A stretch of 64,000 nt of DNA, taken from assembly GCF_003790525.1 (NCBI RefSeq), contig NZ_CP033635.1, one strand, 5' to 3'. A program made the translations under genes and the position numbers. Positions 7,715-28,922 of this stretch are shown here, piece after piece (position 1 is the first letter of the stretch; every line of letters begins with the position of its first letter). Source of the DNA: Escherichia coli (GTDB lineage: Bacteria; Pseudomonadota; Gammaproteobacteria; Enterobacterales; Enterobacteriaceae). Under the pieces are notes generated by a model. That model saw nothing but the letters and a program-made list of their open reading frames with translations, was not told the DNA's origin and did not search any database.

Positions 7715-8108
7715 TACATTAAATCATCTGGTTCCTAAATAACCTTATTATGCACTGTAAGTGTATGTTGGCTTTATAAATTGCAATTTTTATATGGGAA
7801 TTGTTTTGTCAATAGTTACGAAAAGGATAAATAAAATAACCACATCTTCTTGGCGTCGAATATTGGAGAGCGATAATTTATAGTAAACTAGATTACCAGA
7901 GAAAAGATAAGTGGCAATATATTTGCTGGTGGCATTTTTATTAAATATTATATGTGTTGGTTTGTGACTTTAAAAAAATTAATTTTTAATAAAAAGGTGA
8001 TTTATTTCTCATTTTGATTAATATTGAGGATCCATTATGATTATCAGTTGTATGTCATAAAAATGAGAGGCTAAAAGCCTCAATGAATTGAGGCCTTTAG
8101 AACAGGGG

Positions 8109-8678
8109 TTATATCTTCTTTATATCTAACACATCACCCTCCCATACTCGTTTAAATCTTGCTGCATTACTGGCTGTATATAATACCGTATGATGTATAT
8201 TTCTGTGCCCTAAATAATCTTGTATTAGTCTGGTGTCTAACCCTTGATTAGCTAAAGCATACCCACAACCATGCCTAAGCATGTGAGGATGAATATTAAT
8301 ATTCATATTGTGACTATATTTCTTACACATCTTATACACATATTGTCTCGAGATTTTATTTCCTTGACAAGAAAGAAATAAAGAGTCTTCAAAAGGTTTT
8401 TTTACTATGTTATCACGTAGTGCTAGCCATTTTTTTAATAACAGAACAGTTTCTTTTTGCAGGGGATGTACTGTGGATAATCCATTTTTTAAACGCTTGA
8501 TATATATTGCTGACTCTGAAAAGTCAATGTCGCTAATCTTTAGTGCAATAAGCTCGCTTACCCTAAGACCATGTACATATGCCATTTGTAACATGGCTTT
8601 ATCTCTAATTTCATTTTTTGAACCGTTGATGGCTTCAAAAAATAACAACCATTCACTATGAGTAATAAATTTGCGCAT
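8109..8678 (-). CDS. FimB/FimE-family tyrosine site-specific recombinase (ipbA-like)
   Basis: 189-aa ORF; C-terminal HPHMLRHGCGYALANQGLDTRLIQDYLGHRNIHHTVLYT matches the FimB/FimE catalytic region. Confidence 0.8.
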   Translation of the reverse strand: MRKFITHSEWLLFFEAINGSKNEIRDKAMLQMAYVHGLRVSELIALKISDIDFSESAIYIKRLKNGLSTVHPLQKETVLLLKKWLALRDNIVKKPFEDSLFLSCQGNKISRQYVYKMCKKYSHNMNINIHPHMLRHGCGYALANQGLDTRLIQDYLGHRNIHHTVLYTASNAARFKRVWEGDVLDIKKI

Positions 8679-9426
8679 AATATTATCGGTTATACTAATT
8701 AAGTTAAAAAATAAACTATAAATACCAGAGCCTGGTATTATTGCTTGTTTTTTATAAGCAAATAATGAGCTGGGGTTTAAATTATGCCACTAAATGGATA
8801 TTCATCAATACCCCGCCAGAGAGATAGTTGCCCAGCGGGCATAGATCATTATTAGTCAACCAATGAGCATAAATAAGCACAAGGAGGTGTGTATTGCGAA
8901 TAGTAATTCAATGACATGCTGGTGGTTTTTTTGTGGTGAAAATATTTGTACCTTTTTGTTTACGGATGAAAAATAAACAGTCATATTATTTTGGTTAATT
9001 GTTGTGTTAGTTTTAACACTCGGTGATGTTTTTTGTTATAGTGCATTAATTTTTAAATAAAAAAATTCATACATTCATGGATGTAATATATACAAGATAC
9101 AATGTTAATTTTAGATAAAATATTAATTGCATTGGATACTTTTTAAATATGCCGATGTTGAGCTTAATTTTATGAGGGAATACTATTTCGGGTTGTAGGA
9201 CTTTTTTATAATCATCTTATAGGGCTCTTTATATTTACAGGAGGGTTTTGAACGATAGTTACATAACGAAGGTTGTTTATATGCGTTTACAAGCGATTAA
9301 TTAGATTAGGTGAATTTTAATAAATTAATCTATAATCATACAGCAACTATATGAATTATATTATTGACTAAATGTAATTCTTTCATCATAGTTGACATGG
9401 TTATTTTATATAAATAGAGGTGATTT

Positions 9427-10056
9427 ATGCAAAACAGAAAATTTTTAACGCATCATGAAATTAATTTACTACTTCAATCTGTAAGACAAAAGAGTTGCTC
9501 TTCACGCGATGTTTGCATGATTTTATTGGCTTATTTTCATGGTCTGCGTGTTAGTGAGCTCTTATCTCTGCAGTTGTCGGATTTAGAACTAACTACAGAA
9601 AAAATATATATTCAACGGATAAAAAATGGATTCAGTACAGTCCATCCACTTCAAAAGGAAGAGGTGATTGCAATAACAAACTGGCTGAATGAAAGGAATT
9701 CATTAAATGTTAAACATTTCAATGATAACCCGTGGTTATTTGTTTCCCGAACAGGAAAACCATTATCGAGACAACGATTTTATAACATAGTTTCTGCTGC
9801 GGGTAAAAATGCAGGTTTAAATATTAAAGTTCATCCACATATGTTACGCCATGCATGTGGTTATTCACTAGCAGATAATGGTGTGGATACCCGTCTTATT
9901 CAGGACTATCTCGGGCATCGTAATATCAGGCATACGGTAATTTATACTGCTTCTAATTCAATGAGATTTGAAAAAATGTGGGGGAGAGGTGACGCAAAAA
10001 AGCAACATTTTGACCCAAAATGTAAACCCAATCTTTGTTTAGAAATTCTCGTATAG
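9427..10056 (+). CDS. FimB/FimE-family tyrosine site-specific recombinase (ipuA-like)
   Basis: 209-aa ORF; HPHMLRHACGYSLADNGVDTRLIQDYLGHRNIRHTVIYT catalytic motif; paralog of 8109-8678, divergently oriented. Confidence 0.8.
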   Translation: MQNRKFLTHHEINLLLQSVRQKSCSSRDVCMILLAYFHGLRVSELLSLQLSDLELTTEKIYIQRIKNGFSTVHPLQKEEVIAITNWLNERNSLNVKHFNDNPWLFVSRTGKPLSRQRFYNIVSAAGKNAGLNIKVHPHMLRHACGYSLADNGVDTRLIQDYLGHRNIRHTVIYTASNSMRFEKMWGRGDAKKQHFDPKCKPNLCLEILV

Positions 10057-10285
10057 AAAAACATTTTTTTCTATAAAAAACATTAAATTTACTGATTTAG
10101 ATCAATGTGTGACGTCAATCTACACATAAAGAGGTAGGTTTGTCTTCTTTTTAATCTTTGGCGTATAAAGCCAAAATGTAAATAATAATCAAAATTATAT
10201 TCTGAATTAAAATAAATACGCAGGTTTTTTACCTGCGTTTTGTGCTATTTATAGTTAATTAAATTGATGTTGTCAAAATGGGTCA
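10011..10285. promoter_or_regulatory. Candidate invertible promoter switch (ipuS-like)
   Basis: 7-bp inverted repeat TGACCCA (10011-10017) / TGGGTCA (10279-10285), each followed by TGTAAACC; segment lies between recombinase and regulator and contains an intrinsic-terminator hairpin. Confidence 0.4.
10219..10241 (+). terminator. Hairpin plus T-run inside the candidate switch
   Basis: CGCAGGT-TTTTT-ACCTGCG followed by TTTT; A-rich upstream, so potentially bidirectional. Confidence 0.45.
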
Positions 10286-10373
10286 TTTTGTAAACCTGTG
10301 CCTCAAGGTTTGTCTCCCCCCGGTGTGCAAAGCAAAAGGAAATTGGGAAAGGGGATAACAGGAAATTGATTGC

Positions 10374-10994
10374 ATGGTTTTGATTACGACGACAAAAAAT
10401 ATTTTTATAATTCAAGCAATTAAGAGTATGCGTTGGCGGGGTTTTTCGTACGTGAAAGTCATCGCTGTGGACGACTATTCTTCTCTGATTCGTGATTTTG
10501 GCACATCTTGCTTTCGGGATGAGCAATCGTTGTTGTTACCTGTATTCCCTGATAATGATTCTACTACCTGTATACGCTCACTGTATTTCATTCACCAATG
10601 GCTAAAAAGCCAGCCTGTCAATATTCCGTGCCTGGCATGGGGGGATAATGGTGTAGTTAGTAATAAAGGCATACCTTCCATACCGTGGAAATTAACAGCA
10701 GAGCAATTTTGTTTCTATATAGATAAATTTATCAATGGCTGGAGGTGCAAAAAAAATATTCGCGCGAGTCATAAAGTTTCTTTTTTAGAACGACAATTAT
10801 CCCCGAGGGAGAAAAGTATCTTTATATATACCAAGGAAGGAAAAGATATTGCATGGATCTCTAACACCTTGGGTATATCCAGTAAGACTGTGTGGACGCA
10901 TCGTCGTAGAGCTATGGATAAACTCGGGGTAAAACGTTTACATCAATTTATAAATATTCCGCGTTCCCTTATTAGTGAAAATATTCAATTATAA
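10374..10994 (+). CDS. LuxR/GerE-type transcriptional regulator (ipuR-like)
   Basis: 206-aa ORF; C-terminal HTH LSPREKSIFIYTKEGKDIAWISNTLGISSKTVWTHRRRAMDKLGV; immediately upstream of the autotransporter. Confidence 0.7.
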   Translation: MVLITTTKNIFIIQAIKSMRWRGFSYVKVIAVDDYSSLIRDFGTSCFRDEQSLLLPVFPDNDSTTCIRSLYFIHQWLKSQPVNIPCLAWGDNGVVSNKGIPSIPWKLTAEQFCFYIDKFINGWRCKKNIRASHKVSFLERQLSPREKSIFIYTKEGKDIAWISNTLGISSKTVWTHRRRAMDKLGVKRLHQFINIPRSLISENIQL

Positions 10995-11018
10995 TGTACG
11001 TTCAAGAGTATTAGTGTT

Positions 11019-14000
11019 ATGAATAAGATATATAAAGTCATTTGGAACCATACAACCCAAAAATGGGATGTTGTTTCAGAATTGACGAGTTGTAGAAAAA
11101 AATGTAAATCAACTCGCTTAGGAATTGCTTTATCAGCAATGGTTCTGGGGGGCGCTATTGCAATTAATTGCAATAACGCAATGGCAGATGTCATATTGTC
11201 ACCAGACTGGCGTCCGGGTACGAATAACTCGGGTGTTGGGGCTGCAACAGTAAGTGGTAAAACCGAATACATCACTGGTCCAAATGTCGTCCAGTCTGGT
11301 GGGTCAGGTCTTATCTGGATGACTGTAGAACAGGCAATTTTAAATGGTTACACCACTGGAGATAATTTATCCGGATTGATTTACGTCAATACCGGAGAAA
11401 AAACAAAAACCATTACAGTGAAGGATGAGGTTACTGGCGCTTATCAAACACTTCAAGTGTTTGATACTGACTCTTTCTCACAACGCGATGCGGGGACTGG
11501 AGGAAATGAAACCATTCCTGGTTTTAGTGGCACTGCAGATTTTTTCAATGCGACACGTTTTGTAACAGCCAATAATGGCGGTACAGCTATTTTGGATGTG
11601 GGTTCACCAGCAATCGGTAATTTTTTTAAAAATACACAGCTTGCTGTAGCTGATGGAGAAGGTTCCTCTGTTGTATGGAACTCGGTCAATGATTTTTATT
11701 TTCAGCCTGGTGCAACCATGCAGGGGGGCGGCGTTACTCAAAAAATCATTGACTCAATGAAATATGCTGGAACAATTACTGATTGGGCGGGAAAAGTACA
11801 CCATATTAACTCTCTTGATGATTTAAAGCAATATAATCAATATTTGATAAAGTCACTAGAGGACAAAACGCTTTCTTATAAGCAGTATGATGCTGAATTT
11901 AATAAGGCCCTTATTGTCACCAAGCATAATTACAATGTGGATATGACCGCTGGGGGACGTATAGACTCAACTCCTTACAAAGAAAATGTAGGGCTGCTTG
12001 CTGTTCTCCATGCAACCAATAACGCACGAGCAATATTAGGTAAAACGGGTAAATTAACTGGAGTTCTTCCTGCCTATGGGAATGGAGGAGGGATCGTTGC
12101 AACTAATGGTGGGACCGGTGTTAATGAAGGGGTCATTGATGCCATTGGTACTGAAATGATTGCCTATCAAGACAGTACCATTGTTAACGATGGTACACTT
12201 TTTGTTTGGGATAATAATGATAAATATGCTCTCCAGGCAGAGGGGATGGTTGCCGGTAGTAATGGTTCTTCAGCCATTAATAATGGTGTTATTAATATTC
12301 GCCCATTTAAAAATGCTTTCGCTCCAGAGGGGATTAACACCGCAATTGTTGTTAGTAATGGGGGCATGGCAACAAATAAAGGCACAATAAATATTACTGC
12401 CGATGCATCAACTAATGATAATAATGGCAAAACACGAGGTGTAAATGTTGGAGCTGGAGGCTCTTTTATTAACTCGGCCTTCGGGAGCATCAATGTAGGT
12501 ATTGCGGAGGATAAAACTGCGACTCATTCGGCTGTGGGTTCTGTTGCGATTGAAGTACAAAATGGTGCAAACAAAGTCGTTAATGAAGGTACTATTTTTT
12601 TGGGCAGGGGGGCTCAGGGGAACTACGGAATCCTGGCAAAGGATGCCGGGAGTGTTGATGTGGTAAATAAAGGGACTATCACTATTGACGGTTATGACAG
12701 TGATGCACCTGCACTGAATGTTGGCATGCTGGCAAATAATAGCTCCGGGATGAAAAACTCCGGGATTATCAATGTTAATGGTCTGAACAGTACCGGGCTA
12801 CAGGTAATCAATGCAGGGCAATTAAATTCTGACGGTACGATAAATGTTGGCGGCGAGGGTATCAGTAGTGGTTTCCGTAACTATGGTGCCTGGGTGGAAG
12901 GTGCCAGAAGCAATGTTAATGTATCCGGAAAAATCAATCTTTCCGGTACTGGTGCTGTGGGGGTTTTTGCCAAAGATGGCGGCAGTCTTACCTTGTCAGG
13001 CAATGGTGCAGTGCTATTTGGCAGCAGCGATCAGATAGGCTTTTATGTCTATGGAAAGGACTCTGCCATTCATAATACCGGAAGCGGTGTTATGGATGTG
13101 TCCACTGAAAACTCAACATTATTCCGTATTGCCAGCGGTGCGACATTCCAGGGAACTGCAGATGCTTCTTCTGCACTTACGGCGTCTGGTAAGAACTCTT
13201 ATGCACTTATTGCCACGGGGAAATCGGATGGCGGTGTGGCCTCGACAGTAACGTCTGGAGGAATGACCATCAACCTGACGGGGGAGGGGGCTACAGCGAC
13301 TTTAATTGAAGGGGGAGCGCAGGGCACAATTGAAAGTAATGCCATTATCAATATGGATAATGCCAGTGCAATAGCCGGTATTGCGGATGGCAATGGCTAT
13401 GATATTTCCGGCAAACTCATTAATCCGAAGGACAAGACCACACTATTAACGGCGGGGGCTCAGTTAAGTTCCACCCAGGATAAAGTGACCGGGTATATCG
13501 CCCGTAATGGGGCCACTCTAAATAATACCGGTAATATCATCTTTACTGGAAAGAATACAGTGGGCGTCCGGGTTGAGGAGGGTGCTGTTGGTACCAACAG
13601 CGGAAATATTACAGTTCAGGATGGTGGTGTGGGACTAATTGCTAATGCCACACAAGATGTTACAACGATTAATAACTCGGGAAATCTCGTTCTCAAGGGG
13701 GGAGATAATGCTAACCGTACAACGGGTATAAAAGCATCTGGTACAACAACAACGGTTAATATGACCGCGGGTACTATATCTTTGCAGGGACAGGGGGCGA
13801 TTGGCGTTGAGGCCAGCAATAAAGGGACTGTTAACCTTGATGGCTCGGCAGTACCGAACTTTGCTTCTGACGGCTCTGGTATTACCGATCAGATTGCTTT
13901 TCGTATTATCGGAGATGGTGCAACCATTAAGACGAATATTGCACCGGGAACTCTGCTGGATGCCAGTGGGGAACGTTCTGTACTTTTCCGTATTGAAGAT

Positions 14001-17000
14001 GGGGCAAAACAGGCCGGCTCTTTGCTGATGAAAACCTCCGGGACAGGCAGCCGTGGTATCTGGGCCACAGGGAAAGGGAGCAATGTCCTGGCTGATGCTG
14101 GCAGTGATTTCCAGATCCTGGGCGCTCAGGCTCAGGGATTATATGTAACTGGTGGTGCGACAGCGACGCTGAAACAGGGGGCATCAGTTAACCTTGTAGG
14201 GGATGGCGCTGTTGTCGCGGAAGTTGACGGAAATGAATACGCTCTGGATGGCAGTATTACACAAACGAATACTGGCTCGGTTATTACCAATGAGGCAGAT
14301 ATCTCTTCGCCGCTGAATAATGCCAAGGGCTTTATTACGCGTAATCAGGGACTGTTGATTAACAGCGGCAACATTGATTTCACTACCGGTACAGATAATA
14401 TCGGCGTCTGGGTTGATAATGGTCGTTTTGAAAATACAGGAAGCCGTATAGCGGTCAATGGCGTTGCATTATTTGTTGAAGGTGAACACGCTCAGATTAC
14501 CAGCACGGGAGGGGATATCGTCGCTGTGGATGGTGAGGCTGCCATTAAGCTGGGGGCGGGCGCGTCACTGAACCTGGCAGGGAGTGGCCTGGGAACGATC
14601 GAAGGTCAGAAAAATGCGCATGGCATCCTGCTGGATACAGGGGCTGTGGGGCTGGTTATTGATGGTGCGAAAATCAATGTTAATGCTGCAGGTGCGGTCG
14701 GTCACGGGATTGAGAACCGTGCAGAAATTGAAGGCATTCAGTTAACCAATACGACTGAAATTAATGTGGCTGATGGCATTGGTGTGCGAACTTCTGCTTC
14801 TCTGGCCAAGACCAACAGCGGCACTATTAATGTAGACGGCAGTGGAATTGCACTGGCGTTCCAGAAAGCTGACGGAAGTGAAACCGATAATAACCTGGAT
14901 ATGTCTGACTCCGGCGGATTAGTCATTAATCTGAAAGGCACGGGCGGCACGGGTATTTTCGCCAACACTAAAGATGGTGCTGTCGTGAAGAGTGGTGCAA
15001 GTGTCAATGTTACACAGGCCGATGGCGGTTCCGCTCTGGTGGTTAACAATGCGGCCAGTGAAGTGGTTCAGAGCGGTAATCTCATCTCTGCTTCTCTGAG
15101 TCATGCCGTAGTGGATGCTTCAAAAGCACAGTCCTTTACCAATAAAGGTCAGATTAAAGCTGCGTCCGCCACCGGGACTGCAATGGCGTTTGATGACGCC
15201 GTGAATACCACCGTACTGAATGACAGCGGTGCTGAAATTCAGGGGGTTGTGGCTCTGAACGGCGGTGATAACACATTCACCAATAAAGGCAGTATTACCG
15301 GAACCGTCAGTGCAAAAGAGGGTAACAATACATTTTTATTTGATGATGGCAGCATACTGACAGGAGAAGTGGCTGCAGGAAATGGCAATAACAATGTAAC
15401 GCTCAATGGTAAGGCTCATGTTGATAAGGTTACTGCCGGTACCGGGAAGAACACCTTCACCATTAAAGGCGAAGGGGCAACCTGGAACCTGCTGGATGGC
15501 GGGCAGGGAGATTCTGATTCCCTGATTTTTGATAACGCCATTCATACGCTGGATTCTGCTGTAAAACTACGGAATTTTGAACATGTCGGGCTGAAGAACA
15601 GTTCGCTTGTCACTCTGAAGGAAGCTCTTGTGCTGACCGATGGGGGGACCGGCCCGGGTTCCGTCGATATTGAATCGGGCAGCGAACTGGCCATTATTCC
15701 CGCAGTTGCAGGCAACTTTACCTTTGATCCACTGTTAACAGGCAAAGGAACACTGTCTGCCCGTCTTGATGCCGACACATCTGCTTTTGAATTCAGCCAT
15801 AACGTCGGGGATCAATTTGCCGGAACTCTGAAGCTGGGTACCAGTAGCTTTGCTCTGGAAGGGCTGAATACGAGCGGGTTAACCCATGCAATGCTGATGT
15901 CTGAAACCGGGAATATCACAACGGTTGGCTCCGGTGTTCAGCAGATTGGCGGTCTTGGGTTCAATGGCGGAACGCTGATTTTTGGTTCCGTTATGCCGGG
16001 CGATACCATTGCCAGCAACAGTATTGAAACCTCTGCTGCAGGTACGCTGGATATCCGGGGGAAAGGCACAATTCAGGTCACCATGCCAGATGAAGTGATT
16101 AATGATATTCCGGCTGTTGATACCCGTAAGAATTTGCTGGAGCAGGATGATGCGCAGACCCTGGTCACACTGGTGAATGCAGCGGGTACCGTCACCGGTA
16201 CTGGCGGGCAACTGCAACTGGTGGATGAAAACGGGCAGGCTATTTCTCACAGTCAGACGTTTGATGTCACTCAGGGCGGTGAAGTTGTAGCTCAGGGAAA
16301 TTATGACTATAAGCTGCTGGGAAGCTCCGACGGTGTTAAAGGTGACGGACTGTACATAGGCTATGGGCTGAAGTCGCTGGATTTACAGGGAACCGGTGAT
16401 AAAGCGCTGGTGCTGACACCGAGAGCGAATGCCCAGGGACTGCAGACAGATCTTGGTGCACAGTTAACGGGGGCAGGGGATCTGGCCATCGAAGCTGCGG
16501 GGCAGGTTGTCACACTGTCTAACGGCGGTAATAACTACACCGGGGATACGCTGGTGCGCAGCGGCACACTGCAGATGGCAAATGATAATGTGCTTGGCGC
16601 TACAGGTAGCCTGAACGTTGCCAGCAATGCCGTCTTCAGAACAGACGGATACAGCCAGACGGTGGGTGCACTGCAGACAGAAACGGGAGCGCACATTCAG
16701 CTTGATAGCGGTAGTGTACTCACGGTCAGCGGCACGCAGCGTCAGCCGGGCGATGATAATGGTGGCATCATTGAAAACAATGTGCTGACCGGAGACGGTA
16801 CGCTGGCTGTCACGGGCAGCAATCTGACGGTACATGGCACCAATATCGGGTTCACCGGTAATGTCAGCCTTACCCGGGGTTCGCTGGTTGAAATGAACGG
16901 CGCACAGGGGCTGGGAAGCCAGGGCTCCATCAGCTTTGAAAGCCTTAATGATCGCCTGGCGATTGATATCGCCGACGGTAGCGGAGTCAGCAGTAACCTG

Positions 17001-18932
17001 AGTAAATCGCTTTCCGGAAAAGGTTCAGTGGGCATACTGAACACCACTGATCTGACACTTTCCGGAGATAACCGTAATTTCAGCGGTGAATTCCGTGTGC
17101 AGAAAGATGCTGCTCTGCGGGCTTCAGATGAAAAACACCTGGGCACCGGGCTGATTGACAGTGATGGTGTCACCTGGCTTACCGCCAGTGGAAACTGGTT
17201 ACTGAAGAATGATATTACTGGCTCCGGCGCTCTGGTGAAACAGGGGGCGGGTAATCTGATCATTAATCATGAGCTGACTTATACCGGTGATACCACGGTT
17301 GAGAATGGCGTTCTGATTGTCGGTGATGATTCAGTCACCCGTGCCGCTGGCGCGACGTTGTCAGGATCCAAAAACATTCATGTTCTTAATGGCGGCACAC
17401 TGAGTGGGCTGGGGACCGTTTCGGGTCAGGTTAATAACCAGGGAACACTGGCATCACTGAATGCTCTCTCAGGTTATGAAACGGCAGAGGCGGGCAATTT
17501 TACCGTTGGCTCACTGACCAATACCGGCGTCATTCGTCTGGCCGGTGGTAAGACAGGAAATACCCTGACCGTAAATGGCGATTACACTGGTGGCGGTACG
17601 TTAATTATCAATACCGTGCTGGGGGATGATACTTCTGCCACTGACAAACTGATTGTCACGGGTAACACCTCCGGTGATACCGGCGTGGTGGTGAATAATG
17701 TCCGGGGCCAGGGGGCTCAGACCGCTGACGGCATTGAGATTGTGCATGTCGGTGGGCAGTCTGACGGTAACTTCAGACTGCAGAACCGTGCGGTGGCAGG
17801 GGCATGGGAATATTTCCTGCATAAAGGTAATGCGGGTGGTACTGACGGTAACTGGTATCTGCGTTCTGAATTGCCGCCAGAACCACAACCGCAGCCGCAG
17901 CCACAACCGCAGCCACAGCCACACCCCACGCCGGATAAACCTGTACAGAAGGTCTATCGTCCGGAAGCGGGCTCTTATATTGCGAACATAGCGGCAGCCA
18001 ACACGCTGTTCAACATCAGAATGCACGATCGTGAGGGGGAAACTTACTATACCGATGTGTTTACTGGTGAGAAGAAAGCAACAAGTATGTGGATGCGTCA
18101 TATCGGCGGTCATAATCGCTGGAAGGACAGCAGTTCACAGCTGAATACGCAAAGTAACCGTTATGTTGTGCAACTGGGTGGCAGCATTGCGCAATGGACT
18201 GACGGTCAGGACCGTCTGCAACTGGGGATTATGGCCGGTTATGGAAATGAGAAGAGTTCCACGACATCCTCGCTTTCGGGATATAAATCTAAAGGTGCGA
18301 TCAATGGATACAGCACCGGTTTATACGGAACGTGGCAGCAGAATGACGGTAATGACAACGGGGCTTATGTCGATACCTGGATCCAGTACGGATGGTTTAA
18401 TAATACCGTTAATGGTGAAAAACTGGCTGCGGAGTCCTGGAAATCCCGTGGATTTACCGGTTCAGTGGAAGCGGGTTATACCTTTAAAGCCGGCGAATTT
18501 ACCGGTAGCCAGGGTAGTCACTATGACTGGTATATTCAGCCGCAGTCCCAGATCACGTGGATGAATGTAAGAGCCAGTGAGCATACGGAGAAGAATGGCA
18601 CGAAAGTTCAGCTCAGCGGAGACGGTAATATCCAGAGTCGTCTGGGCGTCAGAACTTACCTGAAAGGTAAGAGTGCGTCTGATGATAATAAGGCGCATCA
18701 GTTCGAGCCATTTGTGGAAGTTAACTGGATCCATAATACACGGAGCTGGGGTGTCAAAATGGATAATACGGCACTCAGTCAGGACGGAGCTACAAATATT
18801 GCTGAAGTCAAAACGGGTGTTCAGGGTAAATTGTCAGATAACCTGAATGTCTGGGGCAATGTTGGTGTTCAGGCTGGCGATAAAGGGTACAGTGATGCCC
18901 AGGCAATGCTGGGTATTAAATATATATTCTAA
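11019..18932 (+). CDS. Type Va autotransporter adhesin, AIDA-I/UpaE-like, 2637 aa
   Basis: Extended signal peptide motif MNKIYKVIWNHTTQKWDVVSEL; long Gly/Asn/Thr-rich beta-helical passenger; (PQ)n linker; C-terminal beta-barrel ending ...GIKYIF. Confidence 0.9.
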   Translation: MNKIYKVIWNHTTQKWDVVSELTSCRKKCKSTRLGIALSAMVLGGAIAINCNNAMADVILSPDWRPGTNNSGVGAATVSGKTEYITGPNVVQSGGSGLIWMTVEQAILNGYTTGDNLSGLIYVNTGEKTKTITVKDEVTGAYQTLQVFDTDSFSQRDAGTGGNETIPGFSGTADFFNATRFVTANNGGTAILDVGSPAIGNFFKNTQLAVADGEGSSVVWNSVNDFYFQPGATMQGGGVTQKIIDSMKYAGTITDWAGKVHHINSLDDLKQYNQYLIKSLEDKTLSYKQYDAEFNKALIVTKHNYNVDMTAGGRIDSTPYKENVGLLAVLHATNNARAILGKTGKLTGVLPAYGNGGGIVATNGGTGVNEGVIDAIGTEMIAYQDSTIVNDGTLFVWDNNDKYALQAEGMVAGSNGSSAINNGVINIRPFKNAFAPEGINTAIVVSNGGMATNKGTINITADASTNDNNGKTRGVNVGAGGSFINSAFGSINVGIAEDKTATHSAVGSVAIEVQNGANKVVNEGTIFLGRGAQGNYGILAKDAGSVDVVNKGTITIDGYDSDAPALNVGMLANNSSGMKNSGIINVNGLNSTGLQVINAGQLNSDGTINVGGEGISSGFRNYGAWVEGARSNVNVSGKINLSGTGAVGVFAKDGGSLTLSGNGAVLFGSSDQIGFYVYGKDSAIHNTGSGVMDVSTENSTLFRIASGATFQGTADASSALTASGKNSYALIATGKSDGGVASTVTSGGMTINLTGEGATATLIEGGAQGTIESNAIINMDNASAIAGIADGNGYDISGKLINPKDKTTLLTAGAQLSSTQDKVTGYIARNGATLNNTGNIIFTGKNTVGVRVEEGAVGTNSGNITVQDGGVGLIANATQDVTTINNSGNLVLKGGDNANRTTGIKASGTTTTVNMTAGTISLQGQGAIGVEASNKGTVNLDGSAVPNFASDGSGITDQIAFRIIGDGATIKTNIAPGTLLDASGERSVLFRIEDGAKQAGSLLMKTSGTGSRGIWATGKGSNVLADAGSDFQILGAQAQGLYVTGGATATLKQGASVNLVGDGAVVAEVDGNEYALDGSITQTNTGSVITNEADISSPLNNAKGFITRNQGLLINSGNIDFTTGTDNIGVWVDNGRFENTGSRIAVNGVALFVEGEHAQITSTGGDIVAVDGEAAIKLGAGASLNLAGSGLGTIEGQKNAHGILLDTGAVGLVIDGAKINVNAAGAVGHGIENRAEIEGIQLTNTTEINVADGIGVRTSASLAKTNSGTINVDGSGIALAFQKADGSETDNNLDMSDSGGLVINLKGTGGTGIFANTKDGAVVKSGASVNVTQADGGSALVVNNAASEVVQSGNLISASLSHAVVDASKAQSFTNKGQIKAASATGTAMAFDDAVNTTVLNDSGAEIQGVVALNGGDNTFTNKGSITGTVSAKEGNNTFLFDDGSILTGEVAAGNGNNNVTLNGKAHVDKVTAGTGKNTFTIKGEGATWNLLDGGQGDSDSLIFDNAIHTLDSAVKLRNFEHVGLKNSSLVTLKEALVLTDGGTGPGSVDIESGSELAIIPAVAGNFTFDPLLTGKGTLSARLDADTSAFEFSHNVGDQFAGTLKLGTSSFALEGLNTSGLTHAMLMSETGNITTVGSGVQQIGGLGFNGGTLIFGSVMPGDTIASNSIETSAAGTLDIRGKGTIQVTMPDEVINDIPAVDTRKNLLEQDDAQTLVTLVNAAGTVTGTGGQLQLVDENGQAISHSQTFDVTQGGEVVAQGNYDYKLLGSSDGVKGDGLYIGYGLKSLDLQGTGDKALVLTPRANAQGLQTDLGAQLTGAGDLAIEAAGQVVTLSNGGNNYTGDTLVRSGTLQMANDNVLGATGSLNVASNAVFRTDGYSQTVGALQTETGAHIQLDSGSVLTVSGTQRQPGDDNGGIIENNVLTGDGTLAVTGSNLTVHGTNIGFTGNVSLTRGSLVEMNGAQGLGSQGSISFESLNDRLAIDIADGSGVSSNLSKSLSGKGSVGILNTTDLTLSGDNRNFSGEFRVQKDAALRASDEKHLGTGLIDSDGVTWLTASGNWLLKNDITGSGALVKQGAGNLIINHELTYTGDTTVENGVLIVGDDSVTRAAGATLSGSKNIHVLNGGTLSGLGTVSGQVNNQGTLASLNALSGYETAEAGNFTVGSLTNTGVIRLAGGKTGNTLTVNGDYTGGGTLIINTVLGDDTSATDKLIVTGNTSGDTGVVVNNVRGQGAQTADGIEIVHVGGQSDGNFRLQNRAVAGAWEYFLHKGNAGGTDGNWYLRSELPPEPQPQPQPQPQPQPHPTPDKPVQKVYRPEAGSYIANIAAANTLFNIRMHDREGETYYTDVFTGEKKATSMWMRHIGGHNRWKDSSSQLNTQSNRYVVQLGGSIAQWTDGQDRLQLGIMAGYGNEKSSTTSSLSGYKSKGAINGYSTGLYGTWQQNDGNDNGAYVDTWIQYGWFNNTVNGEKLAAESWKSRGFTGSVEAGYTFKAGEFTGSQGSHYDWYIQPQSQITWMNVRASEHTEKNGTKVQLSGDGNIQSRLGVRTYLKGKSASDDNKAHQFEPFVEVNWIHNTRSWGVKMDNTALSQDGATNIAEVKTGVQGKLSDNLNVWGNVGVQAGDKGYSDAQAMLGIKYIF
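17874..17933 (+). repeat. Pro-Gln dipeptide repeat linker (CCGCAG/CCACAA units)
   Basis: PPEPQPQPQPQPQPQPHPTP in the translation; tandem 6-nt units in the DNA. Confidence 0.85.
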
Positions 18933-18939
18933 TCACACA

Positions 18940-18965
18940 GTGGCAGGAGGGGACCTCCTGCCACC
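18940..18965 (+). terminator. Strong hairpin 3' of the autotransporter
   Basis: TGGCAGGAGG-GGA-CCTCCTGCCA perfect 10-bp stem just after the stop; no clear T-run, so the terminator call is tentative. Confidence 0.35.
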
Positions 18966-18979
18966 TCAGGGTTGTCATA

Positions 18980-19510
18980 ATGAGTTCTGTAATGAAATTT
19001 TCTGTTGTTAATGCAGTAGTGCTGCTGTTGCTGATTGTACTTACTGGTGTTTTTTATATGAAAAAGTCAAAAGAAATTGCAGTTGTTAATATCGATGCTA
19101 TTTATAATCAGTCTGCCGCCGGAGACATGGCCAGAAAACATCTGAATGAGGTTAAGAGTATTCTTGAAAAAGGATATGAGGATGCGCAAAAAGTATTCGC
19201 AGATAACGCGAATAAAGAGGCGCTGCTTCTTGATGCCAGACAAAAACTGGAACGACAATATGTTATTGAGGAAAATAGCGCAAAAATGGTGTTATCCCGT
19301 GCGATAGATAATGCTATAGGCACATGGAGAAAAGACAATCCTAAAAATATTGCCGTATTGTCTTCAGGTGTTGTGCTTGCGCATAACGAGTCAGCTGATA
19401 TCACCAAAGAAGTCATGACTCTGGTTGAAAAAGAAAATCTGGTTTTTAATAAATTACCCAAAGTGGAAGTGCACAATAAGAATGAAGAGAAACCAGAACA
19501 AAGTAAGTAA
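18980..19510 (+). CDS. Skp/OmpH-like periplasmic chaperone paralog
   Basis: 176-aa ORF with signal/TM segment; IAVVNIDAIYNQSAAG and NIAVLSSGVVLAHNESADITKEVMTLVEK resemble Skp IAIVNMGSLFQQVAQ and [29 protein letters not shown] from memory. Confidence 0.55.
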   Translation: MSSVMKFSVVNAVVLLLLIVLTGVFYMKKSKEIAVVNIDAIYNQSAAGDMARKHLNEVKSILEKGYEDAQKVFADNANKEALLLDARQKLERQYVIEENSAKMVLSRAIDNAIGTWRKDNPKNIAVLSSGVVLAHNESADITKEVMTLVEKENLVFNKLPKVEVHNKNEEKPEQSK

Positions 19511-19947
19511 TCACTAGATTCTGACGATTTCCAGAAGGGAGATTCAGCAGGCCAGCATCTGTAATCATTCAGATTTTCTGGCTTGCTGCTAAATATGGTT
19601 GCTGAGAAAAATAGCAGTCCAGTAATTTATTCAGATTACTGAATATAATAATTTTTCAGGAACGGTTATGCTGAAGGTAGTATGTTTAATCGACACAATT
19701 ATTTGCTGTGTCTAATATGAGGTGACATTTTTATGATCACTGACCAGCAAGACTGACCCGTATTGATTAGCCTGATTATTGGCAACTTATTGGGGTAGTC
19801 ATTTTGACATCGAATGGGGGAGGTTTCCAGTTAAGTTCACGAATGCATGATGATTTGCGTTCACATATCGAAGTGCTGGTTGACTATACTAAGGATTTTA
19901 AGATAACTCACTGATTGTAAGTGGGTTATTGCGAGGGGGATGATAAA

Positions 19948-19966
19948 TGGTGTCCCTGCAGAAATC
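19948..19966. repeat. Degenerate copy of argW 3' end (putative distal att of the satellite)
   Basis: TGGTGTCCCTGCAGAAATC versus the argW 3' end TGGTGTCCCCTGCAGGAATC at 32636-32655 (17 of 20); about 12.7 kb from the tRNA. Confidence 0.5.
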
Positions 19967-20183
19967 ATCTTAATTATTATTATGTTGATTTATATGTAGT
20001 TTATTTTTGATTTTTTGTTTTTGTACCCGTTTTGTGCCCGTTTTATTCGATTCCCAATTTAAACTTCGATTCTAGAAAGGTGAGTAGGGGAGGTTATCAT
20101 TTCATGTATCATTATTGTAGACACAGAATAATTACTCGCCTATCCTCACTGTAGACACACAATAGATACAGGAGTTAACCCAC

Positions 20184-20432
20184 ATGCGCACACAGGTTGT
20201 ATTGCAAAAATGGGGTAATAGCATTGCCCTTCGACTAACGGGAAACCTTAAAACCGTTCCGGGGTTTTCAGTGGGTGATATCGTCAACGTTGAAATTAGT
20301 GAAAAGGGGCTTTTTGTAGAAAAGCCTGCACGCCGTCGCCTGAGTGAAGCCGAATTACTCGCCGGGATAACGCCAGTTACAGCGCACGCGGACGAAATTG
20401 CCACCCCATTCAATGAGGAGGTTGATTACTGA
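20184..20432 (+). CDS. MazE/PemI-family antitoxin (AbrB/SpoVT fold)
   Basis: 82-aa ORF MRTQVVLQKWGNSIALRL...; stop overlaps the toxin start. Confidence 0.75.
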   Translation: MRTQVVLQKWGNSIALRLTGNLKTVPGFSVGDIVNVEISEKGLFVEKPARRRLSEAELLAGITPVTAHADEIATPFNEEVDY

Positions 20433-20776
20433 TGTTTGTACCTAAGCGTGGTGATATTTGCTGGCTGGATTTTGAGCCGCAGAAAGGAAAAGAGAGCGGA
20501 AAGTATCGCCCGGCACTCATACTATCCCATGAGCAATATAACCGACTCACCGGGCTTGTCATATGCTGCCCCATAAGTACGAGCATACGAAATGCTCCCA
20601 CAGAAGTTCCGGTAACAAATCTGGACGCCCCCAGCGTGGTAGCAACCACACTCATTCAAACCCTTGACTGGCGTCAGCGGAAAGCGCGCTTAATCACAGA
20701 GGCAGAAGATGGGGTATTTAATGATGTGCTTGAAAGAGTCATTACCCTGATTGGTGGAGAGCATCTGCTTAAGTAA
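20432..20776 (+). CDS. MazF/PemK-family toxin (endoribonuclease)
   Basis: 114-aa ORF MFVPKRGDICWLDFEPQKGKESGKYRPALILS..., PemK/MazF-like N-terminus; coupled to the upstream antitoxin. Confidence 0.75.
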   Translation: MFVPKRGDICWLDFEPQKGKESGKYRPALILSHEQYNRLTGLVICCPISTSIRNAPTEVPVTNLDAPSVVATTLIQTLDWRQRKARLITEAEDGVFNDVLERVITLIGGEHLLK

Positions 20777-20819
20777 AAGGAGGGCTGAGAAGCCCTCAAC
20801 GTTACCAGAAATTTCCTTG

Positions 20820-22091
20820 CTATTCTTTCCAGTCAATCCCATCCAGTAAGCACCCTGCCTCATATTGCCCAACAACCCAGTCAAGATTGCAGGACTCATA
20901 GAAAGCGAGGCGATTATACTGTGGCTCGTTTTTTACCAGACCACGAACGGAGCCGCGTTGCCAGTACAGGCACAGATTGGCAAGAGGTGTGATCAGCACA
21001 GCATTGTCCGGGAAAAATGGAACGGTCACAGCCGGAAGATTCCCCAGCACGGGCTTTTTAATGATTTCCTCGTTAAGCAAAATTTCCTGATTCATCTGCG
21101 ATGGATCAAGACGGTTTATCAAAGGCCATTGTTTACGGACCAGAGTATTGTGACTGCATACGGCCACAATGCCTTCCTGCCACTGTTCATCAATCATGGA
21201 TTGCCAGGCATCCAGAACAAGTGCATCTATTGTATGGTGTGTACCGCGTGTATTGCTTGTCGGCGATGAAACAGAAAGACCGCTGATAACCCTTCCCGCT
21301 GCTTCGTTTCGAAACTTCTGCAACCATCCGACGCCGCAATCGTCACGGCCCGGATATGTTTCAGGATCAGATTGATCGGCATAGTGTGTGCCGTTAAAAC
21401 CAATCTGAATTAAATCCAGCCATTTCCGGCGTTCAAAAGCGGCACGGGCGCTTCCTTCAAGACCATTTGCGGACGCGTGAGCATCGACATTGTCGTAGCT
21501 CAACGCAAAATCAAAATTAACCTGCTCGCAGCGGTAGCCTCTTGAAACCAGTGAATGCGCCTGTAGTGGCGAACGGCGCTCGTGAGGTGGCGATGTACGT
21601 GCCAACGGCCGGGAAGCGTCTACCAGCACAACCTGACCTGATATATCCGTAACAGGCACGGGGGTTATTTCAGCAAGGAAATTTGCCTGCCATCCACTGG
21701 CAAGCGTTGCACTCTGGCGGGGAACGGGTTCAACTTCTGACGAATAGCGCGCAGTATCACCGGAAAAGTGCAAATCCTTCGGATGCTTTCCGGTTATCGA
21801 CTCGATAGCGCAATTGAAAACCATCTGAGACTGTTGATTTCGTTGTGATACAACATAATCAGCAGTGCAATTATAACACTCAATGCCGTCGTTATTACCC
21901 CCACCGCTTGCAGTATGCAGGGTGTGAAGCTCAAGCTCACGCTCCAGTTTTTGATATTCATTGTCCAGCGCGCGACGCGTCTCATCGCTTATGCTTGCTG
22001 TGTTTGCTTTCAGGCGATTCCGGGACATTAACTCCCTGAGTCGGCTCACTATATCAGCGCCGTGCAAATGTGAAATATTCAGACCGCCCAT
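20820..22091 (-). CDS. Hypothetical protein B of a two-gene cargo operon (about 423 aa), no recognisable family
   Basis: Start taken at the internal ATG (MGGLNISHLHG...) that overlaps the upstream gene stop as TAATG; the longer 470-aa ORF is read as an artefactual extension. Confidence 0.6.
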   Translation of the reverse strand: MGGLNISHLHGADIVSRLRELMSRNRLKANTASISDETRRALDNEYQKLERELELHTLHTASGGGNNDGIECYNCTADYVVSQRNQQSQMVFNCAIESITGKHPKDLHFSGDTARYSSEVEPVPRQSATLASGWQANFLAEITPVPVTDISGQVVLVDASRPLARTSPPHERRSPLQAHSLVSRGYRCEQVNFDFALSYDNVDAHASANGLEGSARAAFERRKWLDLIQIGFNGTHYADQSDPETYPGRDDCGVGWLQKFRNEAAGRVISGLSVSSPTSNTRGTHHTIDALVLDAWQSMIDEQWQEGIVAVCSHNTLVRKQWPLINRLDPSQMNQEILLNEEIIKKPVLGNLPAVTVPFFPDNAVLITPLANLCLYWQRGSVRGLVKNEPQYNRLAFYESCNLDWVVGQYEAGCLLDGIDWKE

Positions 22092-22801
22092 TACTGCCAC
22101 CCCCGGCAGAGTTCTCTGCCCTCCGCAAGGTCGCGCATTTTTTCTGGATTCTGTCGCGCCGCGCTCCATTGTACAGGTGAAGGGGCGTTCCTGATTGCGT
22201 GGCTTACCGAATCCGGCAGTTTCTCCGGGCAATAACGAAGCGGATTGGAGGCATCGCTCTCAATATCGTTAATCCGGCCGCGAATCAGCCCGACACTTTC
22301 AACAATATCTGCCATTTTCAGTGTTTCACATATTTTCTTTTCTGCGTTATACAGCGGCTGGCCAAGCAGCTCACATAAACCACGAATCAATAGCAGAGCA
22401 GGGGTCAGCTCGTTAATCAGTCCGGGAAGTGCTTTTGCAAATATCTCTGCCCGCAACTTATTATCAATGCTTTGGTAAGCACAGCCAGCCTCTGCCGCGT
22501 TATAACGACACTCCAGTAACCTGATGCGCGCCTCATCATGCAATACCCGCAGACGCTCAAGATTTTCTCGCGCCACACCCGCCTGAATGCATAATTTTGC
22601 GGAGGCTTCCGTTTTTGCGCCCAGCGCAGACAGGATTGAGTTCTGCCAGTCACGTTCGAGAGACTCCAGCTCCCCTTTCGTCTGTTCGATAGTCGCTTCC
22701 AGATTGGTGATTAATGATTCCTGTTCGCTGAGTTTTGCCATGGCCGTATCAAACTGTGCTTTACATGCCTGATGCCTGGCGCTTGCCTGAGTTATATCCA
22801 T
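22091..22801 (-). CDS. Hypothetical protein A of the two-gene cargo operon (236 aa), predicted coiled-coil N-terminal half
   Basis: Heptad-like, charge-rich N-terminus (KLSEQESLITNLEATIEQTKGELESLERD); no known motif recognised; first gene of the operon. Confidence 0.6.
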   Translation of the reverse strand: MDITQASARHQACKAQFDTAMAKLSEQESLITNLEATIEQTKGELESLERDWQNSILSALGAKTEASAKLCIQAGVARENLERLRVLHDEARIRLLECRYNAAEAGCAYQSIDNKLRAEIFAKALPGLINELTPALLLIRGLCELLGQPLYNAEKKICETLKMADIVESVGLIRGRINDIESDASNPLRYCPEKLPDSVSHAIRNAPSPVQWSAARQNPEKMRDLAEGRELCRGWQ

Positions 22802-22965
22802 TGTTTGCTCCTGTAATACATTTTTTACTTACGCCCATTTTTTCCATATTGCGTAATACATTCCAGCCGATTTTGTTCTCGTAATACGCTCACAATACTG
22901 TTGTATTACGCTTTCTTATATCGCGGGTGTTAAATCCCGGTATAAGCAATCAGGGAGGCAACACG

Positions 22966-23199
22966 ATGAAAAAACAAAAGAAAATGCGATACGTATTACG
23001 CTGTATTCGTATCCCGCACGAAATCGACCATAAAATAAATCAGATATGTAAGGACAGAGAGATGAACTACTCCCAGTGCGTCAGAATGTTTATCTGTCAG
23101 GGAATTAAGGCCGGGGAAACGCAGGAAGAAGACCGCAACGGGCGCAATGTAGCGGGAGATGTGTGGGCCTGGGCAAATGACCAGAACTACACGACGTAA
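22966..23199 (+). CDS. Small hypothetical protein, possibly a ribbon-helix-helix regulator
   Basis: Start taken at MKKQKKMRYVL...; divergent from the cargo operon; beta-strand then two helices by eye. Confidence 0.35.
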   Translation: MKKQKKMRYVLRCIRIPHEIDHKINQICKDREMNYSQCVRMFICQGIKAGETQEEDRNGRNVAGDVWAWANDQNYTT

Positions 23200-23249
23200 T
23201 ACAGAAATAACGTAGCCGGTTACACTCGCTGGCTGCGTTATACAAATCA

Positions 23250-23432
23250 CTATGAAGTTTTCAACTTCCTGCGCTTAGTGATGCGTACAAACGACTCAAG
23301 CGTACAAAAACAAGCCCCACACTCAATATTACTGCACTGGTAATACGTTTTGTAGATGTTTTGTTCGTGCTCTTCCAACGAACGACTACGGGTTCGGGCT
23401 GAAGCGCCACAGGCCGGGCAAGGGAAAGACAT
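23250..23432 (-). CDS. Ogr/Delta-family zinc-finger late-gene activator
   Basis: 60-aa ORF MSFPCPACGASARTRSRSL...YYQCSNIECGACFCTLESFVRIT aligns with P2 Ogr (MFHCPLCQHAAHARTSRYI...YHQCQNVNCSATFITYESVQRYIV). Confidence 0.8.
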   Translation of the reverse strand: MSFPCPACGASARTRSRSLEEHEQNIYKTYYQCSNIECGACFCTLESFVRITKRRKLKTS

Positions 23433-23793
23433 ATCACGCTCCTCTTACTGGTGTGAAATTTGACCTATTATATCTCCTGCCGCCCCCTCTGGCTGTATCA
23501 AATAAACCCGCAGCAGTCGCCGCGTATTACGGACGGACGCACCGTTCCCATGCTCACTCGTCACATTCCCCGTATCAGTTCTCTCTTACCGTAAGAACGG
23601 CTCTGGCTGGCGATAAAACTAACCCGGTCGGGCATTCCCGCAGTCTTTAGAGAAAATGTAATTTACCCCCTGAAACGTGGGCTGTTCCCCCGTCACCTGC
23701 GCGCGAAAAACTCACCGTTTTTTGTGCACGCACGAAATCGCCCTCCGGGTGCGCCAGTACTGGGCCGGATGGGCAAAAAGTTACTCTAAAAAA

Positions 23794-23820
23794 TTGTGCA
23801 AATTTGTGCACTTTTGTGCA
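23794..23820. promoter_or_regulatory. Three direct TTGTGCA repeats at 10-bp spacing (operator-like)
   Basis: TTGTGCA at 23794, 23804 and 23814, with a fourth copy at 23722; helical phasing suggests a DNA-binding protein array. Confidence 0.35.
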
Positions 23821-24042
23821 GATGAACAATAGCGTGAAAAAGAGTGCTTTTGAGAGATTTTTTATGGCAACTGCGCCGCGTGTATTACGTTTTTTACCAT
23901 CCCCGCCGCGCATGTACATACTTCATTTTTCTGCCAGACAACAGGGCAACTCCCCGTGACTGACAGCCCCAAAAAATCAATGATTGATGTTGCATTTTTG
24001 TTAAAGGTTAGACCAGTTGTTTTAGGGCTCTGCCTCATAATC

Positions 24043-24366
24043 CGGTGGGGGGTGCGCAAAGCGGTTACAACGGTTACAACACTCAAAAACACCACTTAAC
24101 AGCATGATTTTAATGGATATTGTTTGTAACCGCTTTGCGGTTACACTGCGGTTACAACGGTTACAGGTTTCAAAAAGCACTTTATTATCAATCAATTAAA
24201 AACTTAACCTGTAACCGCCTGTAACCTAACAAAACGGTTACATGTAACCGCGTTGTAACCGCTTTTATAACTCATCGGACCAGTTATAATATATTGATAT
24301 ATAATACAAAAATAAGTAATTTTAAATTTGTAACCGTTGTAACCGCTTTGCGCACCCCCCCCCAAA
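24043..24366. repeat. Iteron cluster flanked by a ~30-bp inverted repeat (candidate satellite origin)
   Basis: GGGGGGTGCGCAAAGCGGTTACAACGGTTAC (24045-24076) and its reverse complement (24330-24363); at least 8 GGTTACA/TGTAACC copies in both orientations in between. Confidence 0.7.
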
Positions 24367-24611
24367 CTTTAGCGCGACCCTTTAAAATGTTAATTAAACT
24401 CACTTACTCTGTATCTCTCTCGTTAACTCTCTGTTATTGAAATGTATCTCTCCACTGTTTCACTCTTTCTGATAATCAGGGGAAGCAAAAAATTGATGGC
24501 GGCACTACTGCAATATGGCCACCATTGCATTGCTGTTACCGTTGGTTCTGGCCAACAAAAAAGGTCAGCGGGAAACTGACCTCTTTTGCTGTGAATGCGG
24601 CGTTCTGCGGG

Positions 24612-25616: not shown

Positions 25617-25618
25617 GT

Positions 25619-28288: not shown

Positions 28289-28336
28289 ATATAAAACTCC
28301 ACCCCACTGCACCTTTTGCCGTGGGGTTTTTATTAA

Positions 28337-28636
28337 TTACTCGTTACTTATTGCTTTGGCAATCCCGGCGGTTTCAGCACTATGCCATGAAAAAATTCCG
28401 CCAGAAGTATGCATTCCTGACTTAATCACTCGTAATTCCCGATAAAGAATGTTAGTTAATGATTCCATTTCATTAATTTGCACTGGCATTCTCTCACTGG
28501 TATTAATTTCACCTGTCAATGCTGAAATGAGCGCAATAACATTTATTACATCTTCAAGATTCTCAATGGAATCTTCCGTGAAAAAACCAGCGTATTCTTT
28601 TTTGTATATATTGCGGATATTCTGATTTTCAGACAT
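28337..28636 (-). CDS. Hypothetical satellite protein
   Basis: 99-aa ORF in the same-strand gene array upstream of the primase. Confidence 0.4.
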   Translation of the reverse strand: MSENQNIRNIYKKEYAGFFTEDSIENLEDVINVIALISALTGEINTSERMPVQINEMESLTNILYRELRVIKSGMHTSGGIFSWHSAETAGIAKAISNE

Positions 28637-28703
28637 AAAAACTCCCCGACCCGTTAAGATCGAAATATAAATTTAATTCAGTTATCAGTTGGTAATTCGG
28701 TAA

Positions 28704-28922
28704 TCAGTCGGAAAGCTGCGTCACCTTCAACGCTTTGAAATGTGTCATTCCCAGCTCTTCCAGCCCTTCGGCTGCGCGGCGTATGGCTTCGCCCGGTCCC
28801 GTTCCGTATACCGTTGCATGTGCATGTTTGGTTAACCCACGTTTATTAACGGCATAACCCAACACAAAGAAACGTTTTTCACCACTGCCATTATTTTTAC
28901 GGGATATTGAACGGCTTTTCAT
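28704..28922 (-). CDS. Hypothetical satellite protein
   Basis: 72-aa ORF; stop overlaps the next gene. Confidence 0.4.
   Translation of the reverse strand: MKSRSISRKNNGSGEKRFFVLGYAVNKRGLTKHAHATVYGTGPGEAIRRAAEGLEELGMTHFKALKVTQLSD

Follow-up and report, generated by a model that had tools for sequence, protein, structure and literature searches.

Introduction

The closest described relative of the system considered here is the upaE locus of Escherichia coli CFT073, in which an invertible DNA element, ipuS, controls the large autotransporter adhesin UpaE (Battaglioli et al. 2018, mBio, PMC6083910). ipuS is 260 bp long, lies in the 317-bp spacer between ipuA and ipuR, and ends in 7-bp inverted repeats, one of which is inside ipuA (PMC6083910). 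The OFF state encodes full-length IpuA, and the ON state encodes an IpuA that lacks 11 C-terminal residues and carries a K-to-F change (PMC6083910, Fig. 1C). Transcription of ipuR-upaE starts within ipuS in the ON state only, and UpaE is detected in no cells other than locked-ON ones, where it fractionates with the cells and is absent from the supernatant (PMC6083910). UpaE promotes biofilm and adhesion to fibronectin, laminin, and collagens (Battaglioli et al. 2018), while bacteria with ipuS ON are less motile, adhere more to kidney cells, and have a five-fold advantage in the kidneys of mice (PMC6083910). A second, independent study found that ipuS inversion raises expression of both ipuR and upaE, but not of dsd. 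Here, we analyzed a 64-kb stretch of E. coli contig NZ_CP033635.1 (hereafter the window), in which the longest open reading frame (ORF) by far, at 11019-18932, is almost certainly an intact upaE, encoding a type Va adhesin of extraintestinal E. coli that is phase variable via ipuS and is OFF in this assembly.

Other described systems resemble the locus in part. The fimS switch of type 1 fimbriae also carries its promoter on an invertible element of ~0.3 kb, and Fim-type tyrosine recombinases are common to both switches; ipuS differs in that its target is an autotransporter operon instead of fimbriae, its repeats are 7 bp long where those of fimS are 9 bp, and one of them is inside the recombinase gene. 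Ag43 and TibA share with UpaE the biofilm and adhesion phenotypes and phase variability. Phase variation of Ag43 is Dam/OxyR-based, not invertase-based. upaE, the ipuS switch, and the adhesin role are already known (published in 2018 and named by the NCBI annotation pipeline), and our main finding is therefore not new.

The largest gene of the window is an intact upaE

The gene at the center of this analysis is:

11019-18932 (stop codon included), + strand: upaE, type Va autotransporter adhesin, 2637 aa

It is a single ATG-to-stop frame of 2637 codons plus the stop, uninterrupted and free of frameshifts; a frame so long cannot occur by chance, and the ORF is real. The predicted product has a calculated mass of 270.2 kDa and is rich in glycine (14.9%), threonine (9.6%), alanine (9.2%), and asparagine (8.4%), with serine also abundant. 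An earlier note, made from the letters of this DNA, had proposed a very large 2637-aa autotransporter here, and both the intact ORF and its domains bear this out. That note had singled out truncation or frameshifting as damaging to its claim; the window allele has neither, and such alleles occur in other strains. Inactivated upaE alleles include frameshifted copies in A41, SC422, and plasmid pAPEC201602, and a copy in 33F4 that lacks its N terminus (loci L008, L010, L011, and L003).

We searched 5426 complete E. coli genomes by megablast with window positions 8000-19600 as the query. The upaE region is present in 257 of them (coverage at least 80% in 231), and the DNA of the 11.6-kb locus is 100% identical in many strains, including SMS-3-5. 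At the identical SMS-3-5 locus, RefSeq names ipuB, ipuA, a helix-turn-helix regulator, and a "phase-variable autotransporter adhesin UpaE." Aligned with the 2649-aa UpaE of CFT073, the window protein is identical at 2599 of 2649 positions, with 12 gap positions and 38 substitutions (98% identity over the full length). CFT073 likewise has the same gene order (dsdC, ipuB, ipuA, the regulator, upaE, a 176-aa gene, tRNA-Arg, and yfdC), and the window order between dsdC and argW (ipuB, ipuA, ipuS, ipuR, and upaE) matches the published context. Because identical loci carry the UpaE annotation, and because the protein shares 98% full-length identity and the same synteny with CFT073, we identify the ORF as upaE. 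Nothing in the evidence contradicts this identification. The alignment with UpaE that the earlier note had suggested, once run, showed the protein to be UpaE itself.

The two loci agree in the gene, in all its neighbors (dsdC, ipuB, ipuA, ipuS, ipuR, upaE, the skp-like gene described below, argW, and yfdC), in the 317-bp spacer and 7-bp repeats, and in predicted mass (271 kDa in CFT073 versus 270 kDa in the window). They differ in that the window protein is 12 aa shorter, wholly because it has (PQ)6 rather than (PQ)12, and in that the window carries a P4-like satellite between the skp-like gene and argW.

The translocation unit of the protein also matches other autotransporter families, which raises the question of whether the ORF is instead an orthologue of AIDA-I, YfaL/EhaC, ShdA, MisL, or an ECSE_1600-family protein. 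NCBIfam matches are significant for all five families, with partial cover (ECSE_1600 from aa 1247 and the other four from aa 2046 or later), and the AIDA-I transport unit 4MEE matches UpaE aa 2178-2637 (E 1.2e-91, PDB sequence search). Set against the curated cut-offs, the scores are 798/2335 for ECSE_1600, 356/1200 for AIDA-I, 465/1297 for MisL, 227/2249 for ShdA, and 215/1459 for YfaL, while the identity to CFT073 UpaE is 98% over the full length and at the same locus. The sub-threshold scores together with the full-length UpaE identity refute orthology to any of these families, which we regard as having almost no chance of being correct. The translocation unit and the secretion class justify the "AIDA-type" label of the earlier note, although UpaE is not AIDA-I itself (356 bits versus 1200). 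UpaE and AIDA-I have a homologous autochaperone and barrel unit (4MEE; NF033176 over aa 2046-2637) and the same type Va secretion logic; in contrast, the UpaE passenger is unrelated in sequence and twice as long, and no heptosyltransferase gene of the aah/tibC type, whose product glycosylates passenger repeats, adjoins upaE, whose immediate neighbors are ipuR and the skp-like gene.

The ipuS switch is in the OFF orientation

The regulatory genes and the switch lie upstream of upaE:

8109-8678, - strand: ipuB, Fim-type tyrosine DNA invertase, 189 aa (SMS-3-5 RefSeq; NCBIfam tyrosine-type DNA invertase, E 9e-61)
9427-10056, + strand: ipuA, Fim-type tyrosine DNA invertase, full-length 209-aa OFF-state form (RefSeq, NCBIfam)
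10011-10285, no strand assigned: ipuS, invertible promoter element, OFF orientation (inverted repeats, in-silico inversion)
10374-10994, + strand: ipuR, LuxR/GerE-type helix-turn-helix regulator, 206 aa, 24 nt upstream of upaE (RefSeq, NCBIfam, PMC6083910)

The spacer between ipuA and ipuR measures 317 bp in the window, the same as published (PMC6083910). The 7-bp inverted repeats are TGACCCA at 10011-10017, inside ipuA, and TGGGTCA at 10279-10285, with 261 nt between them and a PacI site inside the element. Simulated inversion of ipuS shortens IpuA from 209 to 198 aa, with the new end reading ...QHFDPF. This in-silico inversion matches the published 11-aa truncation of IpuA, and the window ipuS is therefore OFF. 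A bidirectional terminator-like hairpin at 10218-10238 also lies inside ipuS, and the OFF orientation puts it just upstream of ipuR, where it would be expected to stop read-through from ipuA into ipuR-upaE.

We then used 501 nt of the simulated ON sequence to search the 236 complete genomes that carry ipuS. The ON form had no contiguous match in any of the 236, and in each genome listed the inner 275 nt matched on the strand opposite to the flanks. Given the lack of a contiguous ON match and the reversed inner segment, the assembled majority state of ipuS is OFF in all 236; an assembly consensus shows no more than the orientation that prevails in a culture. In one strain, TUM1586, the annotation places an IS200C transposase gene on or beside the inverted ipuS segment, next to or inside ipuA.

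upaE is under purifying selection

A switch that is never assembled in its ON state could mean that upaE is a silent relic, effectively locked OFF and decaying. The absence of ON among the 236 genomes, the frameshifted or truncated alleles of some strains, and the IS200C insertion next to or inside ipuA would all fit such a history. The coding sequence argues otherwise. By the Nei-Gojobori method, the ratio of nonsynonymous to synonymous substitution rates (dN/dS) of upaE is 0.17 when CFT073 is the comparison and 0.12 with the 85%-identical orthologue of Salmonella enterica subsp. diarizonae, with similar values across the head, helix, autochaperone, and barrel. Since dN/dS is low in every region, upaE is no relic but is maintained by purifying selection. 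In addition, the 7.9-kb ORF has no interruption, the two inverted repeats and the two invertase genes are undamaged, inversion and expression have been demonstrated in CFT073, and the assembly consensus reports the majority orientation only. A decaying pseudogene is rejected on the dN/dS of 0.12-0.17, and we consider a relic very improbable.

UpaE has the architecture of a type Va adhesin

The protein divides into the following parts:

11019-11186, + strand: extended signal peptide, ESPR at aa 1-43 (Pfam ESPR, E 8.5e-13)
11187-17504, + strand: passenger, aa 57-2162 (AlphaFold2 [AF2] model, Foldseek, Pfam PATR)
aa 1832-1852 and aa 2072-2101, + strand: PATR repeats (Pfam, renumbered to the full protein)
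17505-17819, + strand: autochaperone AC_1, aa 2163-2267 (Pfam AC_1, E 8.5e-27)
18087-18863, + strand: C-terminal beta-barrel translocator, aa 2357-2615 (Pfam Autotransporter PF03797, E 1.9e-39)

Cleavage of the signal peptide is likely after the AMA motif at aa 56. At the other end of the protein, TIGR01414 (NCBIfam) matches the barrel region with E 7e-119, and a PDB sequence search matched aa 2070-2296 to the IcsA autochaperone structures 5KE1 (E 9e-20) and 3ML3 (E 2e-17). An N-terminal Sec signal peptide with ESPR, a beta-helix plus autochaperone, and a C-terminal 12-stranded barrel, the marks of type Va secretion, are hence all present in one polypeptide. The earlier note had proposed this layout, with an extended signal peptide, beta-helical passenger, Pro-Gln linker, and C-terminal barrel, and the Pfam, NCBIfam, and PDB matches and the AF2 model agree with it.

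We modeled aa 1-900 of UpaE with AF2 from an input alignment of six sequences. Between aa ~330 and 900, the predicted local distance difference test (pLDDT) score is mostly 80-95, and the chain shows three short strands per turn, the pattern of a right-handed beta-helix. The best Foldseek matches of this model in the PDB are Ag43a (4KH3), Ag43 of EDL933 (7KOH), TibA (4Q1Q), and Ag43b (7KOB), which have the same three-stranded right-handed beta-helix; UpaE differs from them in sequence (13-17% identity) and is 2.5 times longer. The head, aa 57-330 (window 11187-12008), has a pLDDT below 50 except for two helices within aa 266-298, and scores are this low over most of aa 20-330. It is as conserved as the rest of the protein (dN/dS 0.10-0.11). 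We suggest the head as a candidate ligand-binding tip.

PATR is the only family that Pfam recognizes in the passenger. Pfam scans of aa 1-1200 and 901-2000, with a release that does not contain PF27417, returned only ESPR and PATR; PF27417 (BigA_3rd) is listed for UpaE homologues in precomputed tables. In the passenger DNA, Tandem Repeats Finder reported nothing of note, its sole entry being a 27-nt near-duplication at 15392-15418, and autocorrelation of the passenger residues is weak (at most 0.12), with no clear period. The degenerate passenger repeats described in the earlier note can be recognized loosely, as beta-helix rungs or Pfam PATR, but not as a DNA repeat or in the autocorrelation.

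A large passenger behind an ESPR signal peptide is also what serine protease autotransporters of Enterobacteriaceae (SPATEs) have, and UpaE could on that ground be taken for a secreted toxin or protease instead of a cell-bound adhesin. We found no protease or other catalytic Pfam or NCBIfam domain in the passenger, the fold matches are adhesin beta-helices, and CFT073 UpaE is in cells, not supernatants. A SPATE-like secreted protease is rejected on the lack of a catalytic domain, and its probability is negligible next to that of a type Va adhesin.

Allele length varies in the Pro-Gln linker

A Pro-rich tract is positioned between the AC_1 autochaperone and the barrel:

17877-17930, + strand: Pro-rich linker PEPQPQPQPQPQPQPHPT, aa 2287-2304 (Tandem Repeats Finder, translation)

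Window positions 17874-17933 encode PPEPQPQPQPQPQPQPHPTP (aa 2286-2305), with (PQ)6 at 17883-17918, and the underlying DNA has repeat periods of 6 and 18 nt (Tandem Repeats Finder). We surveyed the linker with an 801-bp probe around it, in a sample of 60 of 250 matching genomes chosen at even steps. Relative to the window, the linker has the same length in 18 genomes and differs by +6 bp in 12, +36 bp in 17 (including CFT073, Nissle 1917, and 83972), +30 bp in 3, and -6 bp in 4; the rarer classes of -24, -18, -12, +12, and +18 bp are represented by one genome each. There are hence ten length classes from -24 to +36 bp, and each difference is a multiple of 6. In an alignment of one representative per class, all insertions and deletions fall within the CCN-CAR repeat.

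We also compared whole coding sequences with the 7914 nt of the window allele. They measure 7950 nt in CFT073, 7944 in KE51, 7932 in 09A19CPO009, 7920 in GPT24-02, 7908 in TUM14697, and 7902 in TL20, and in all six intact alleles fetched the length difference is exactly that of the linker. For in-frame changes in copy number, the Pro-Gln spacer is a hotspot (at least 10 alleles), while the length of the 2100-residue passenger is constant. Both tracts had been proposed in the earlier note as sites of length variation. The comparison across strains upholds the proposal for the (PQ)n DNA at 17874-17933 and contradicts it for the passenger, where the six intact alleles do not differ in length and the DNA holds no tandem repeat.

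Region 2 of pertactin from Bordetella pertussis, (PQP)n, is likewise made of Pro-Gln repeats, lies where the passenger ends on its C-terminal side, and has a strain-dependent copy number. It belongs to a different organism and protein and has a different repeat unit, and its fold match to the UpaE model is weak (1DAB, E 0.12). Linker variation in UpaE suggests selection on the stand-off distance of the rod from the barrel, or on antigenicity.

A model for UpaE export and function

By analogy with the CFT073 orthologue, for which the data are published, the window UpaE would be displayed on the cell surface, promote biofilm, and bind matrix proteins. The earlier note had considered the protein probably an adhesin or a contributor to biofilm, controlled by the switch upstream, and experiments on the 98%-identical protein of CFT073 have shown this (PMC6083910). 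In the mechanism that we propose, the ESPR signal peptide would direct the 270-kDa precursor through Sec, and the C-terminal 12-stranded barrel would insert into the outer membrane. The passenger would then be threaded outward C terminus first and take up its beta-helical fold on the autochaperone, giving a very long rod, which would remain cell-bound, with the Pro-Gln spacer perhaps holding it off the barrel. Expression would be phase variable through flipping of the promoter in the ~260-bp ipuS by the Fim-type invertases IpuA, IpuB, FimE, and FimX. With ipuS OFF, as in the window, ipuR-upaE would be silent until inversion, and with ipuS ON, UpaE would promote biofilm and the binding of fibronectin, laminin, and collagen.

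Three points qualify this picture. First, the experimental data stem from the CFT073 allele, from which the window allele differs by (PQ)6 in place of (PQ)12 and by 38 substitutions. Second, ipuS is OFF in 236 of 236 complete genomes. Third, the first ~270 passenger residues, where ligand binding may lie, are not confidently modeled.

A Skp-like gene follows upaE

Two further features lie directly downstream of upaE:

18940-18964, + strand: GC-rich hairpin in the 47-nt spacer between upaE and the skp-like gene (free energy -24.3 kcal/mol, z -2.9; no U tract)
18980-19510, + strand: Skp/OmpH-like gene, 176 aa, with an N-terminal hydrophobic helix (AF2 and fold search), 47 nt after upaE

The ORF at 18980-19510 is annotated "hypothetical" or "OmpH family outer membrane protein." Taken alone, its product matches Pfam OmpH weakly (E 0.011), and a PDB sequence search gave no Skp match. 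Pfam OmpH is found at E of 0.001 or lower in 22 of 40 relatives. The AF2 monomer model, built from the 40-member alignment of these relatives, has a pLDDT of 91, and its ten best PDB fold matches are all Skp/OmpH proteins (probability 0.99-1.0), among them E. coli Skp (1SG2 and 1U2M), a Caulobacter structure (4KQT), and SkpA of the type IX secretion system (8GL8). On the strength of this model we are confident that the protein adopts the Skp/OmpH fold, with a small beta core and long alpha-helical arms. Unlike Skp, it starts with a 25-residue hydrophobic helix that has no obvious signal-peptidase site and that may serve as a membrane anchor.

The spacer hairpin is kept in the E. coli, Salmonella, and P1-like copies, and the most divergent copy (L018) retains the stem via compensatory changes. 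It may set the relative expression of upaE and the skp-like gene, which is probably the third gene of the unit. The UpaE paper describes a two-gene operon and does not mention the skp-like gene (PMC6083910), and our literature searches returned no description of a Skp-like autotransporter partner or of a UpaE-like gene on P1-like phage-plasmids. A Skp-like partner of UpaE-type autotransporters thus appears to be unreported.

Skp-like genes adjoin large autotransporters in several contexts

In five independent contexts a Skp-like homologue is linked to a large autotransporter, and it comes immediately after it in every informative context retrieved; the gap between the two genes is 47 nt in the UpaE-like loci. 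A contig of S. enterica subsp. diarizonae (L012, 265-10337) encodes a Fim-type invertase, a GerE regulator, a 2632-aa autotransporter that is 85% identical to UpaE, and the Skp-like protein. Because the whole module is found in this Salmonella subspecies, the UpaE module is not confined to E. coli. Meanwhile, P1-like phage-plasmids (L003, 2269-12657; L015, 729-11183) carry a FaeA/PapI gene, a PapB gene, a UpaE-like 2641-aa autotransporter, the Skp-like gene, and a GerE regulator. In these copies, the linker PEPGTKPETKPETKPTP stands in place of (PQ)n, and PapI/PapB-type regulators stand in place of the invertase switch. The arrangement is rare: in PLSDB, the cassette is on one phage-plasmid (pAPEC201602, the frameshifted copy), and the only other match is a chromosome-sized entry of 4.9 Mb.

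More distant homologues extend the pairing. On a relaxase-bearing contig, a Skp-like protein 44% identical to that of the window follows a large autotransporter, and a 31%-identical homologue lies after a 1675-aa protein that contains AC_1. Two remote Skp-like loci (L022 and L023) have no adjoining autotransporter, and two others (L019 and L021) end at a contig edge, where the neighborhood is uninformative.

A probable P4-like satellite at argW

Between the skp-like gene and argW lies an insert of ~13 kb (~19600-32630) that is absent from SMS-3-5 and CFT073:

20432-20776: MazF-like toxin gene
20820-22232: P2-family capsid-like gene
25619-28312: toprim primase gene
31195-32499: integrase gene
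32636-32710: argW, tRNA-Arg CCT

It also encodes an Icd-like protein, AlpA, and an Ogr/Delta-like protein, and looks like a P4-like satellite prophage at argW. At least 80% of the satellite is held by 18 of the 5426 complete E. coli genomes.

Discussion

The structural model and the conserved position of the Skp-like gene lead us to hypothesize that its product may be a dedicated chaperone. We propose, tentatively and with somewhat less than even confidence, that UpaE-type autotransporters are not strictly "auto": with a Skp paralogue dedicated to it, and possibly anchored in the membrane, the 270-kDa passenger would stay competent for secretion while in the periplasm, the phase-variable unit would be ipuR-upaE-skp rather than the two genes published, and the autotransporter and Skp would together form a mobile cassette under two phase-variation systems. 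Two leads for specialists follow from the locus, namely the conserved Skp-like partner itself and the mobile autotransporter plus Skp cassette, which is paired with a Fim-type invertase on E. coli and Salmonella chromosomes and with PapI/PapB on P1-like phage-plasmids. If the Skp-like protein is a dedicated chaperone, it would explain, in a way that can be tested, how passengers of such size endure their stay in the periplasm.

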